Below, piece by piece: positions 29,676 to 32,905 of a DNA stretch of 64,000 nucleotides. The translations under genes were made by a program, and so were the position numbers. How positions within the stretch are numbered: the stretch's first letter is position 1; each line of letters opens with the position of its first letter. The stretch is taken from the NCBI RefSeq assembly GCF_002854065.1, contig NZ_CP024147.1; one strand, given 5' to 3'. Below the pieces are notes generated by a model. The model ran no database searches and had not been told where the DNA came from. It was given only the letters and a program-made list of their open reading frames with translations. This stretch comes from Escherichia coli (lineage in GTDB: Bacteria > Pseudomonadota > Gammaproteobacteria > Enterobacterales > Enterobacteriaceae).

Positions 29676-30455
29676 ATGGAAATCAGTCTGTTGCAGGCAT
29701 TCGCGTTGGGCATTATCGCCTTTATCGCTGGCCTGGATATGTTTAACGGCTTAACCCATATGCACCGCCCGGTGGTCCTCGGCCCGTTAGTCGGGCTGGT
29801 ACTTGGCGATCTGCATACCGGTATTTTAACCGGCGGTACGCTGGAACTGGTGTGGATGGGGCTGGCCCCGCTGGCGGGCGCACAGCCGCCTAACGTGATT
29901 ATCGGTACTATCGTCGGCACGGCGTTTGCCATTACTACTGGCGTGAAACCCGATGTCGCAGTCGGTGTCGCCGTACCTTTCGCTGTCGCAGTACAGATGG
30001 GGATTACCTTCCTGTTCTCGGTGATGTCTGGCGTGATGTCTCGCTGCGACCGGATGGCGGAGAACGCCGATACTCGCGGCATTGAACGCGTAAACTATCT
30101 GGCACTGCTGGCACTCGGCACTTTCTATTTTCTCTGCGCTTTCCTGCCTATCTACTTCGGCGCGGAACATGCAAAAACCATCATTGATGTCCTGCCGCAA
30201 CGATTAATCGACGGCCTCGGCGTCGCGAGCGGCATCATGCCAGCAATCGGTTTTGCCGTGCTGCTGAAAATCATGATGAAAAACGTCTACATCCCCTACT
30301 TCATCCTGGGCTTTGTTGCCGCAGCCTGGCTCAAGTTACCGGTGCTGGCTATTGCTGCCGCCGCGCTGGCGATGGCGCTGATCGATCTGCTGCGTAAATC
30401 TCCTGAACCGACTCAACCTGCGGCACAGAAAGAGGAATTTGAAGATGGCATCTAA
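29676..30455 (+). CDS. agaW: PTS EIIC (N-acetylgalactosamine), full length
   Basis: 259-aa polytopic ORF; full length, whereas K-12 carries a truncated agaW by established knowledge. Confidence 0.88.
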   Translation: MEISLLQAFALGIIAFIAGLDMFNGLTHMHRPVVLGPLVGLVLGDLHTGILTGGTLELVWMGLAPLAGAQPPNVIIGTIVGTAFAITTGVKPDVAVGVAVPFAVAVQMGITFLFSVMSGVMSRCDRMAENADTRGIERVNYLALLALGTFYFLCAFLPIYFGAEHAKTIIDVLPQRLIDGLGVASGIMPAIGFAVLLKIMMKNVYIPYFILGFVAAAWLKLPVLAIAAAALAMALIDLLRKSPEPTQPAAQKEEFEDGI

Positions 30456-31323
30456 TCAAACCACCCTGCCGAACGTCAGTGAAAACGAAGAAACATTGCT
30501 GACTGGCGTCAATGAAAACGTGTATGAAGATCAGAGCATTGGCGCGGAGCTGACGAAAAAAGATATCAATCGCGTCGCCTGGCGTTCCATGCTGTTACAA
30601 GCGTCTTTTAACTACGAACGTATGCAGGCTTCCGGCTGGTTGTACGGTCTGCTGCCTGCTCTGAAAAAGATCCACACTAATAAACGCGACCTGGCGCGCG
30701 CCATGAAGGGGCATATGGGTTTCTTCAATACCCATCCGTTTCTGGTGACATTTGTTATCGGCATTATCCTTGCGATGGAGCGTTCTAAGCAGGACGTTAA
30801 CAGTATTCAGAGCACCAAAATTGCCGTCGGTGCGCCGCTCGGCGGGATTGGCGATGCAATGTTCTGGCTAACGCTACTGCCGATTTGTGGCGGGATTGGA
30901 GCCAGTCTGGCATTGCAAGGCTCCATTCTTGGCGCAGTCGTCTTTATTGTGCTGTTCAACGTGGTACACCTGGGGCTGCGTTTTGGTCTGGCGCATTATG
31001 CTTACCGCATGGGCGTGGCGGCGATTCCACTCATTAAAGCGAATACCAAAAAAGTCGGCCATGCTGCGTCTATCGTTGGGATGACGGTAATCGGTGCGCT
31101 GGTGGCAACCTATGTTCGTTTAAGCACCACGCTGGAAATCACAGCGGGCGACGCAGTGGTTAAGTTACAGGCTGATGTTATCGACAAACTGATGCCTGCC
31201 TTCTTACCGCTGGTCTATACCCTGACCATGTTCTGGTTGGTACGCCGCGGCTGGAGTCCGCTACGCCTGATTGCGGTTACCGTGGTTCTCGGCATCGTCG
31301 GTAAATTCTGCCATTTCCTTTAA
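30445..31323 (+). CDS. agaE: PTS EIID (N-acetylgalactosamine)
   Basis: Track ORF from TTG 30439; start set to ATG 30445 (MASNQTTLPN...) giving 292 aa; EIID-like RSMLLQASFNYERMQ motif. Confidence 0.88.
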   Translation: MASNQTTLPNVSENEETLLTGVNENVYEDQSIGAELTKKDINRVAWRSMLLQASFNYERMQASGWLYGLLPALKKIHTNKRDLARAMKGHMGFFNTHPFLVTFVIGIILAMERSKQDVNSIQSTKIAVGAPLGGIGDAMFWLTLLPICGGIGASLALQGSILGAVVFIVLFNVVHLGLRFGLAHYAYRMGVAAIPLIKANTKKVGHAASIVGMTVIGALVATYVRLSTTLEITAGDAVVKLQADVIDKLMPAFLPLVYTLTMFWLVRRGWSPLRLIAVTVVLGIVGKFCHFL

Positions 31324-31340
31324 ATACAATGAGGTATTAG

Positions 31341-31775
31341 ATGTTAAGTATTATTTTGACAGGGCATGGCGGGTTTGCCAGTGGCATGGAAAAAGCAATG
31401 AAGCAAATCCTCGGTGAGCAATCGCAGTTTATCGCCATCGATTTTCCGGAAACCTCAAGCACCGCGCTGCTTACATCGCAGCTTGAAGAGGCCATCGCCC
31501 AACTGGATTGTGAAGACGGCATTGTTTTTCTGACGGATTTGCTGGGCGGCACGCCGTTTCGCGTAGCTTCAACGCTGGCGATGCAAAAACCGGGCTGTGA
31601 AGTGATCACCGGCACCAATTTGCAACTGCTACTGGAGATGGTGCTGGAGCGCGAAGGGTTAAGCGGTGAAGAGTTCCGTGTGCAGGCACTGGAGTGTGGA
31701 CATCGTGGGCTGACCAGTCTGGTGGACGAGTTAGGCCGCTGCCATGAGGAATGTCCGGTCGAGGAAGGAATATGA
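31341..31775 (+). CDS. agaF: PTS EIIA (N-acetylgalactosamine/galactosamine)
   Basis: 144-aa ORF following agaE. Confidence 0.88.
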   Translation: MLSIILTGHGGFASGMEKAMKQILGEQSQFIAIDFPETSSTALLTSQLEEAIAQLDCEDGIVFLTDLLGGTPFRVASTLAMQKPGCEVITGTNLQLLLEMVLEREGLSGEEFRVQALECGHRGLTSLVDELGRCHEECPVEEGI

Positions 31776-32905
31776 CACACGTTCTGCGCGCCAGAAGGCT
31801 GCTGACTGAAGAGGGATGGCTCGATGACCATCAGTTGCGTATTGCTGACGGTGTCATCGCAGCAATCGAACCGATTCCAGTGGGCGTGACTGAACGCGAT
31901 GCGGAACTGCTCTGCCCTGCTTACATCGACACCCATGTACACGGTGGTGCGGGCGTTGATGTAATGGATGACGCGCCGGATGTACTCGACAAGCTGGCAA
32001 TGCACAAGGCACGCGAAGGTGTCGGCAGTTGGTTACCGACCACCGTAACCGCGCCGCTTAATACCATTCATGCGGCGCTGAAACGTATTGCTCAACGTTG
32101 CCAACGCGGCGGACCTGGTGCGCAAGTGCTGGGGAGTTATCTCGAAGGACCGTACTTCACGCCGCAGAATAAAGGCGCGCATCCGCCGGAATTGTTTCGC
32201 GAGCTTGAAATTGCCGAGCTGGATCAATTGATTGCCGTTTCTCAGCACACCTTACGCGTGGTAGCGCTGGCACCGGAAAAAGAAGGGGCATTGCAGGCCA
32301 TCCGCCATCTTAAACAGCAAAATGTAAGGGTGATGCTGGGGCATAGCGCGGCGACCTGGCAACAAACCCGCGCCGCGTTTGATGCCGGTGCCGACGGCCT
32401 GGTGCATTGCTATAACGGGATGACAGGTTTACATCACCGCGAACCGGGAATGGTTGGCGCGGGATTAACGGACAAGCGCGCCTAGCTGGAACTGATAGCC
32501 GATGGTCATCATGTGCATCCGGCGGCGATGTCGCTGTGTTGTTGCTGTTCGAAAGAGAGAATCGTGCTGATCACCGACGCGATGCAAGCAGCCGGGATGC
32601 CGGATGGTCGCTATACGTTATGTGGCGAAGAAGTGCAGATGCACGGTGGCGTTGTCCGTATCGCGTCCGGTGGGCTGGCGGGCAGTACGCTGTCTGTTGA
32701 TGCGGCAGTGCGCAATATGGTCGAGTTGACGGGCGTAACGCCTGCGGAAGCCATTCATATGGCATCGCTGCATCCGGCGCGAATGCTGGGTGTTGATGGT
32801 GTTCTGGGATCGCTTAAACCGGGCAAACGCGCCAGCGTCGTTGCGCTGGATAGCGGGCTGCATGTGCAACAAATCTGGATTCAGGGTCAATTAGCTTCGT
32901 TTTGA
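31772..32905 (+). pseudogene. agaA: N-acetylgalactosamine-6-phosphate deacetylase interrupted by an in-frame TAG
   Basis: Track ORFs 31751..32485 and 32513..32905 share one reading frame; the only break is TAG at 32483..32485 in the context ...GLTDKRA*LELIADGHHVHPAAM, where tryptophan (TGG) is recalled. Confidence 0.8.

Follow-up and report, generated by a model that had tools for sequence, protein, structure and literature searches.

An undeleted aga/kba cluster of Escherichia coli with an amber codon in agaA and an IS1 copy in agaC

The aga/kba regulon of Escherichia coli allows the bacterium to take up and break down N-acetylgalactosamine (GalNAc) and galactosamine (GalN). Within the stretch of E. 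coli DNA analysed here, which has a length of 64,000 nucleotides and is called the window below, positions 26831-39094 hold this regulon in its undeleted, 13-gene arrangement. The order of the genes is agaR, then kbaZ-agaV-agaW-agaE-agaF-agaA, and then agaS-kbaY-agaB-agaC-agaD-agaI (Table 1), and this arrangement is the ancestral form of the cluster.

Table 1. Genes and other features of the aga/kba locus, in positions of the window.
Feature	Position	Strand	Description
agaR	26831..27640	-	aga regulon repressor, 269 aa, intact; protein identical in REL606 and 100416; same annotation in relatives
kbaZ	27889..29169	+	tagatose-bisphosphate aldolase subunit, 426 aa, intact; differs from REL606 by three substitutions
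agaV	29192..29665	+	GalNAc PTS IIB subunit, 157 aa, intact; protein identical to REL606
agaW	29676..30455	+	GalNAc PTS IIC subunit, 259 aa, open; G185S
agaE	30445..31323	+	GalNAc PTS IID subunit, 292 aa, intact; protein identical to REL606
agaF	31341..31775	+	IIA subunit common to GalNAc and GalN PTS, 144 aa, intact; protein identical to REL606
agaA pseudogene (GalNAc-6-P deacetylase)	31772..32905	+	frame of normal length with an amber codon inside
TAG, Trp238 to amber in agaA	32483..32485	+	TGG to TAG, read directly from the sequence
segment missing from K-12	30052..32356	.	2,305 bp: 3' part of agaW, agaE, agaF, 5' part of agaA
agaS	33256..34410	+	GalN-6-P deaminase/isomerase, 384 aa, intact; function from PMC3668189
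kbaY	34423..35283	+	tagatose-1,6-bisphosphate aldolase, 286 aa, intact; protein identical to REL606
agaB	35450..35926	+	GalN PTS IIB subunit, 158 aa, intact
agaC 5' fragment	35965..36085	+	40 codons, stop at IS1 edge; breakpoint in K-12 alignment
IS1	36086..36853	+	768 bp; insA 36141-36416, insB frame 36335-36838; inside agaC
agaC 3' fragment	36854..37545	+	
agaD	37535..38326	+	GalN PTS IID subunit, 263 aa, open, downstream of IS1; protein identical to REL606
agaI	38327..39094	+	255 aa; 3' end within the segment replacing yraHIJK

The reading frames of agaW, agaE and agaF are open over their full lengths, and each product is recognized by an NCBIfam model. AgaW gives an end-to-end match to the equivalog NF040757 (409 bits; cut-off 300), AgaE matches NF040760 over profile positions 1-292 of 292 (617.6 bits; cut-off 500) and AgaF matches NF040761 over positions 1-144 of 144 (219 bits; cut-off 130). 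The length of AgaE is counted from an ATG, the mechanically called ORF beginning with a TTG at position 30439. All three proteins are of the mannose-family PTS, with secondary matches to models of the mannose/fructose/sorbose subfamily, and the ManY structures 6k1h and 7dyr align with AgaW (E about 4e-27). An antisense ORF (31337-32005, 222 aa) that lies over agaF and agaA was taken to be a shadow ORF in a coding region with a G+C content of 55%, and a search of the whole window against Rfam returned only rnpB, SraG, the S15 leader and naRNA4, all of them outside 29676-32905.

A preliminary description of this DNA had listed agaW, agaE and agaF as present at these lengths, which the open frames and equivalog models bear out, and had set the locus apart from K-12-type chromosomes, which the alignments confirm. 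By blastn and base-by-base comparison, MG1655 has no counterpart of the 2,305 bp listed in Table 1, and its gene content over the interval differs accordingly, while the same 2,305 bp are present in the E. coli B strain REL606 and in the genomes 100416 and CUWW06. The agaW'-'agaA junction of K-12 (MG1655 3281052-3281091) is absent from the window, where the alignment is continuous through both edges and all of the sequence missing from K-12 is retained. A GCGACC microhomology is found at the K-12 deletion junction, its two copies in the window being located at 30046-30051 and 32351-32356; K-12 lost the segment when 2,305 bp were deleted between two short stretches of nearly the same sequence, one in agaW and one in agaA.

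The same description implied that the long form is rare, whereas it is the norm of the species. The cluster is undeleted in 4,929 of 5,426 complete E. coli genomes (about 91%, counting those in which at least 80% of the query was covered), and a 40-mer across the K-12 junction occurs in 369 of the 5,426, mostly laboratory derivatives of K-12. At the aga locus it is the K-12 reference that is exceptional, and possession of the long form is therefore uninformative with regard to lineage.

One gene that had been counted as full-length does not retain that status. The agaA frame keeps its length (1,134 nt) and has no indel, but a single internal stop, an in-frame TAG, is located at codon 238 of 377. 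The TAG allele is carried by two of the 5,426 genomes and the TGG allele by 5,273, and in both TAG carriers, which are 100416 (Gambia, stool) and CUWW06 (Thailand, wastewater), agaA is annotated as a pseudogene and flagged 'internal stop'. Only one base separates TAG from the allele of the 5,273 genomes, as might be expected if a sequencing or assembly error had been made in an intact gene. We reject this explanation as extremely improbable because the identical TAG recurs in two complete assemblies that are independent of each other and come from different continents; moreover, the carriers are the closest relatives of the window, so the mutation was inherited within a small clade.

The point at which the stop splits agaA lies inside the amidohydrolase domain. 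The paralogue of AgaA is the GlcNAc-6-phosphate deacetylase NagA (PDB 1ymy/2p50; TIGR00221), to which the full-length AgaA of REL606 aligns over residues 5-362 (E=2.7e-49), and the two halves of the window's agaA match the nagA profile, which has 380 positions, over 5-240 and 246-379, both scores falling short of the cut-off. With a numbering offset of +4, His247 and Asp269 of AgaA correspond to His251 and Asp273 of NagA, and the stop at Trp238 is upstream of both. We take Asp273 of NagA to have a catalytic role. A 237-residue AgaA product should be inactive because the equivalents of His251 and Asp273 are missing from it.

Activity would be kept if the TAG were suppressed or read through, or if the 237-aa fragment associated with a second fragment of 130 or 139 aa. 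A GTG-initiated ORF (32513-32905) does span the C-terminal part of AgaA, and analogous options were raised for the agaI amber mutation of O157:H7 (PMC3668189). Nevertheless, we consider such a rescue very improbable, given that evidence for a suppressor is lacking and that the split, within a single domain, parts the N-terminal portion from the His247 and Asp269 equivalents. Genome 100416 also carries two more agaA missense changes downstream of the stop, and this pattern fits relaxed constraint. Given that agaA is the final gene of its operon and that agaS has its own promoter, the amber codon should carry no polar cost.

The preliminary description correctly reported an IS1 copy but did not place it inside agaC. 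The ends of the element read GGTGATGCTGCC... and ...GAGTCATTACC, and it is flanked by a 9-bp direct repeat, CCCTAACTG, at 36077-36085 and 36854-36862, which represents the target duplication. The element cuts agaC, the gene for the IIC subunit of the GalN transporter, after codon 40, appears as a gap in the alignments of the window to K-12, REL606 and 100416, and has 98.96% identity to the IS1B annotated in CUWW06, a genome with a separate IS1 between kbaY and agaB. A 40-mer across the agaC::IS1 junction was found in 0 of the 5,426 complete genomes; therefore, the collection does not include the genome of the window, and the insertion is private to the strain. IS1 has transposed into codon 41 of agaC and thereby destroys the IIC subunit. 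Insertions of IS1 are polar on downstream genes, and by this polarity the copy in agaC probably lowers the expression of agaD and agaI.

With regard to lineage, a B-type or other non-K-12 origin had been proposed, of which the second part stands and the first does not. Genomes 100416 and CUWW06 are 99.96-99.97% identical to the window, whereas REL606 is 98.3-98.9% identical and shows three structural differences. In REL606, agaA and agaC are intact, there is no IS1 at the site, and yraHIJK is located downstream of agaI, where the window has instead a 0.9-kb toxin-antitoxin-like segment with a Gp49/RelE-like and HTH gene pair. An origin from E. coli B is rejected on these grounds. It is likewise hardly credible that the window carries a fully intact cluster of the long form, as in E. 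coli C and B (Aga+ Gam+), on a B-type chromosome: the intact agaW, agaE and agaF, the identity of the AgaE and AgaF proteins to those of REL606 and the absence of the K-12 deletion would all agree with it, but the TAG in agaA and the splitting of agaC by IS1 are both foreign to REL606, and the yraHIJK genes and the lower overall identity of that strain speak against it as well.

Also private to the window strain is a G to A change at 30228, which replaces Gly185 of AgaW with serine. Gly185 is the first glycine of a GG motif common to AgaW, AgaC and ManY. A 45-mer with the serine allele had no match among the complete genomes of the collection; over that stretch this base is the sole difference of 100416 and CUWW06 from the window, and both would match if they carried the allele.

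A fully functional 13-gene cluster has an intact agaA and an intact agaBCD, and the window has neither. We conclude with high confidence that this is an undeleted aga cluster that is decaying in a manner unlike that of K-12, through the amber codon in agaA, the IS1 copy in agaC and the G185S change in AgaW, and that the strain should be Gam- and should use GalNAc by way of NagA. GalN uptake would be lost through agaC::IS1, as happens through the agaC amber mutation in O157:H7, import of GalNAc by AgaVWE/AgaF would persist, and the NagA of the nag operon would deacetylate GalNAc-6-P instead of AgaA. We infer the NagA bypass because E. coli C and EDL933 keep GalNAc use after deletion of agaA, with nagA substituting, and NagA and AgaA are mutually replaceable in vivo (PMC3668189). 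The nagA gene is located outside the window. The strain is predicted to be galactosamine-negative, and to be N-acetylgalactosamine-positive only if NagA substitutes for AgaA.

The AgaW G185S change alone could disable GalNAc uptake, and a cluster dead for both sugars (Aga- Gam-), whether because this change is disabling or because NagA is absent or underexpressed, would give a K-12-like phenotype by a different route. The location of Gly185 in the shared GG motif and the absence of the serine allele from the complete genomes are consistent with this view, as is the placement of both inactivating lesions in the aga cluster: among 48 coding sequences compared, agaA alone has an internal stop, and the sole IS insertion relative to 100416 sits in agaC. 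However, glycine to serine is a small change and, although it affects a conserved residue, may leave the function of AgaW intact. Furthermore, growth on GalNAc was retained, by way of NagA, when agaA was deleted in either of two different strains (PMC3668189), and of the 17 SNPs that separate the window from 100416, 7 fall in the cluster, which makes up about 25% of the compared length, an excess over the flanks that is not significant. On balance, we regard loss of both sugars as possible, though unlikely.

Less likely still, in our judgement, is that the small clade to which the window strain, 100416 and CUWW06 belong is losing the GalNAc/GalN regulon stepwise, under selection or relaxed selection. 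The agaA amber codon is common to all three, and independent IS1 insertions in the agaS-kbaY-agaBCDI operon may have followed it, in agaC here and in the kbaY/agaB gap in CUWW06; to these the window strain adds its private AgaW G185S, and 100416 its further missense changes in the dead agaA. If true, an aga defect would have been reached by a third independent route, besides the deletion in K-12 and the point mutations in O157:H7, which would suggest that in some niches selection acts repeatedly against these transporters.

Returning to the reading of a decaying cluster with a NagA-dependent use of GalNAc, the annotation of the locus is to be corrected such that agaA is a pseudogene rather than full-length and agaC is disrupted by IS1, and metabolic modelling of the strain should score GalN use as negative and GalNAc use as NagA-dependent. 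The undeleted aga cluster is already known biology, and the findings have little significance beyond the correct annotation of the locus.

Among the known systems, E. coli C carries all 13 aga/kba genes (PMC3668189), and the complete regulon of E. coli C/B is credited to Brinkkoetter et al. 2000, as that work is cited in PMC3668189. The C/B regulon, represented by the REL606 locus, agrees with the window in its 13 genes and in their order and orientation, and the AgaR, AgaV, AgaE, AgaF, KbaY and AgaD proteins are identical between the two. The window differs in the amber codon at position 238 of agaA, in agaC::IS1, in AgaW G185S and in the Gp49/RelE-like and HTH pair that replaces yraHIJK; the DGxH and TDA motifs are kept in the AgaA of REL606, whereas the window copy stops before both.

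K-12, which is Aga- Gam- owing to a 2.3-kb deletion (PMC3668189), shares the locus and its flanks (garD-prlF-yhaV-agaR ... agaS-kbaY-agaBCDI) at 98.7-99.0% identity. In both K-12 and the window agaA is non-functional. However, K-12 carries the agaW' and 'agaA pseudogenes (b3134/b3135) where the window has agaW, agaE and agaF whole, and agaC is intact in K-12 but disrupted in the window.

The closest functional analogue of the predicted state is O157:H7 (EDL933/Sakai), in which an undeleted cluster bears point lesions and the GalN IIC subunit is inactivated. O157:H7 is Aga+ and owes its Gam- phenotype to the agaC amber mutation; agaI is dispensable and agaS is essential (PMC3668189). Its amber codons are located in agaC (position 8) and agaI, whereas the window has IS1 in agaC and its amber codon in agaA, and the AgaF of the window is wild type, in contrast to the Gly91Ser form present in O157:H7 isolates from the 2006 spinach outbreak.

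The part of the window from 26831 to 39094 was recognised as the aga/kba regulon of Escherichia coli, both from a list of the ORFs in 24-40 kb and from the annotation of near-identical public genomes. The edges of the interval 29676-32905 coincide exactly with the agaW start codon and the agaA stop codon. The preliminary description placed agaW, agaE and agaF here, and all three are present at the lengths it gave, with open frames whose products match NCBIfam equivalog models over their whole length, at scores that exceed the curated cut-offs. The AgaE and AgaF proteins are the same as those of E. 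coli B REL606. An antisense, GTG-initiated ORF of 222 amino acids (31337-32005, minus strand) overlaps agaF and agaA; given that the coding region here is 55% G+C, we treated it as a shadow ORF. The gene content of the interval is confirmed and the cluster is ordinary, although the call for agaA had to be corrected, as described below.

Features of the aga/kba regulon and of other parts of the window
Feature	Position	Strand	Size	Remarks
agaR	within 26831-39094	-		
agaW	29676-30455		259 aa	open; NCBIfam equivalog, 409 bits
agaE	30445-31323		292 aa	open; NCBIfam equivalog, 617.6 bits
agaF	31341-31775		144 aa	open; NCBIfam equivalog, 219 bits
IS1	36086-36853		768 bp	canonical ends; insA and insB frames
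agaI	38327-39094		255 aa	251 aa in K-12 and REL606
Gp49/RelE-like ORF	39125-39577			PF05973
HTH_3 protein	39601-39903			follows Gp49/RelE-like ORF
rnpB (RNase P RNA)	19191-19567	-		Rfam gathering threshold
SraG sRNA	58700-58871	+		Rfam gathering threshold
rpsO (S15) leader	59101-59215	-		Rfam gathering threshold
naRNA4	60728-60798	-		Rfam gathering threshold

It had also been proposed that the chromosome is not of the K-12 type at this locus, and an alignment of MG1655 3274000-3292000 to the window bears this out. The match covers window 22975-30051 and then picks up at 32347, and because the offsets on either side differ by 2,305 bp, K-12 lacks window 30052-32356. This loss is the published 2.3-kb deletion that causes the Aga- Gam- phenotype of K-12, with no use of N-acetylgalactosamine (GalNAc) or galactosamine (GalN) (Brinkkoetter et al. 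2000, as cited in PMC3668189). The deletion junction falls inside a shared GCGACC, itself within a 9/10 match (CGCTGCGACC versus CGCGGCGACC), and this short homology suggests that the deletion may have arisen by illegitimate recombination or replication slippage.

Of the 5,426 complete RefSeq E. coli genomes searched, 5,316 match the 3,230-bp interval at least in part and 4,929 carry the undeleted form (coverage of 80% or more), versus 369 that contain a 40-mer which the K-12 deletion junction alone should match. Given that the latter are overwhelmingly laboratory strains (MG1655, W3110, BW25113, DH5a, J53, EC600, MC4100 and similar), the long form is the norm of the species and K-12 is the exception; possession of the long form does no more than exclude K-12.

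A B-type lineage, which had been thought compatible with these features, finds no favour in the REL606 locus. Read directly, this locus has intact agaA and agaC genes and yraHIJK downstream of agaI, and its identity to the window (98.3-98.9%) is much as that of K-12 (98.7-99.0%). The window haplotype is uncommon, since only 26 of the 5,426 genomes reach 99% identity over the interval. Its closest relatives are 100416 (human stool, Gambia), with 10 mismatches in 27.1 kb and 7 in 22.1 kb, and CUWW06 (wastewater, Thailand), with 4 in 13.7 kb. In REL606 (own locus numbering), the annotation gives the yhaV toxin gene (20266-20730) an internal stop and yhaC (11450-12638) a frameshift; neither carries a pseudogene flag in 100416, and the window copies of these two genes encode the same proteins as those of 100416.

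The agaA gene had been described as full-length, and its frame (31772-32905) does have the correct 377 codons and no indel, but the gene is not intact. An in-frame TAG at 32483-32485 replaces Trp238 (TGG) of REL606 with an amber codon, and the mechanical ORF list gives agaA in two pieces, 31751-32485 and 32513-32905. We searched for the allele with a 45-mer centred on the TAG, using a 28-mer megablast seed that must include the variant base. Only 100416 and CUWW06 (2 of 5,426 genomes) carry the TAG, versus 5,273 that matched the TGG version, and PGAP annotates agaA in both as a pseudogene with an 'internal stop'. A sequencing error was rejected because the allele is common to these two closest relatives; the stop is a real mutation, inherited in a small clade.

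When full-length AgaA is aligned to E. coli NagA (PDB 1ymy/2p50), its numbering runs 4 residues behind in this stretch, such that W238, H247 and D269 are equivalent to NagA Y242, H251 and D273. We take Asp273 to be the catalytic base of NagA, and PDB 2p53, tabulated as a separate NagA sequence of 382 residues, to be its D273N mutant. Lacking the equivalents of H251 and D273, the 237-residue AgaA product should be inactive. Beyond the stop, agaA of 100416 has acquired two more missense changes, G275E and T306M, consistent with relaxed constraint.

A second lesion affects agaC. Alignments to K-12, REL606 and 100416 all stop at 36086 and restart at 36854 with an overlap of 9-10 bp, and the intervening IS1 is flanked by a 9-bp target duplication, CCCTAACTG, at 36077-36085 and 36854-36862. 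Of the 267 codons of agaC, 40 precede the element, and the 5' fragment terminates at the IS1 edge. No other IS1 end sequence occurs in the window, which has a single copy. The insertion is private to the strain, since its left-junction 40-mer is in none of the 5,426 complete genomes, 100416 and CUWW06 included. CUWW06 carries a different IS1 between kbaY and agaB (13692-14459 of its own locus). A 24-kb query that includes IS1 matched at least 39 places in 100416 (NZ_CM128593.1), and many other listed genomes were similar; the 100416 lineage may be IS1-rich.

In the published pathway, AgaVWE with AgaF imports and phosphorylates GalNAc, AgaBCD with AgaF imports GalN, AgaA deacetylates GalNAc-6-P, AgaS deaminates and isomerises GalN-6-P, and KbaYZ cleaves tagatose-1,6-bisphosphate, with promoters PZ, PS and PR repressed by AgaR; agaI is dispensable (PMC3668189). 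O157:H7 is Gam- because of an amber mutation in agaC (PMC3668189). With agaC broken and IS1 probably polar on agaD and agaI, we infer that the present strain is also Gam-. Regarding GalNAc, E. coli C and EDL933 from which agaA has been deleted keep growing because nagA is expressed and substitutes (PMC3668189). At 30228, a G to A change private to the window gives AgaW G185S (codon 185). The glycine replaced is the first of a GG motif that is also conserved in ManY (PDB 6k1h/7dyr) and the paralogue AgaC, and the Ser185 allele was found in none of the 5,426 complete genomes. Loss of GalNAc use as well as GalN use, as might follow from this substitution or from a lack of NagA, appears unlikely to us; the strain should remain Aga+ through NagA, as long as the nagA gene, which lies beyond the window, is intact and G185S is tolerated.

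Among 48 coding sequences compared with 100416, only agaA has an internal stop, and the sole IS insertion relative to that genome is in agaC. Together with the independent IS1 in the same operon of CUWW06, this suggests that the regulon is decaying in the clade, albeit from small numbers. Enrichment of SNPs in the cluster relative to 100416 was not clear (7 of 17 SNPs, with the cluster making up about a quarter of the length compared).

Downstream, a 0.9-kb segment (39052-39952) stands in place of the 5.5-kb yraHIJK fimbrial operon of K-12 and REL606. It begins within the last 14 codons of agaI, and thus the C-terminus of AgaI differs. In full, it occurs in only 12 of the 5,426 complete genomes, and is rarer than anything in the interval 29676-32905. 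Its gene pair resembles a HigB/HigA-style toxin-antitoxin arrangement. The four RNA features in the table are ordinary for the chromosome.

The undeleted aga cluster has been known since 2000 (Brinkkoetter et al. 2000, as cited in PMC3668189), and other natural lesions in it are already documented, namely the K-12 deletion and the agaC, agaI and agaF mutations of O157:H7. The agaA W238*, agaC::IS1 and AgaW G185S changes are strain- or clade-level variants without mechanistic novelty, and the cluster as a whole belongs to the well-described aga/kba system.
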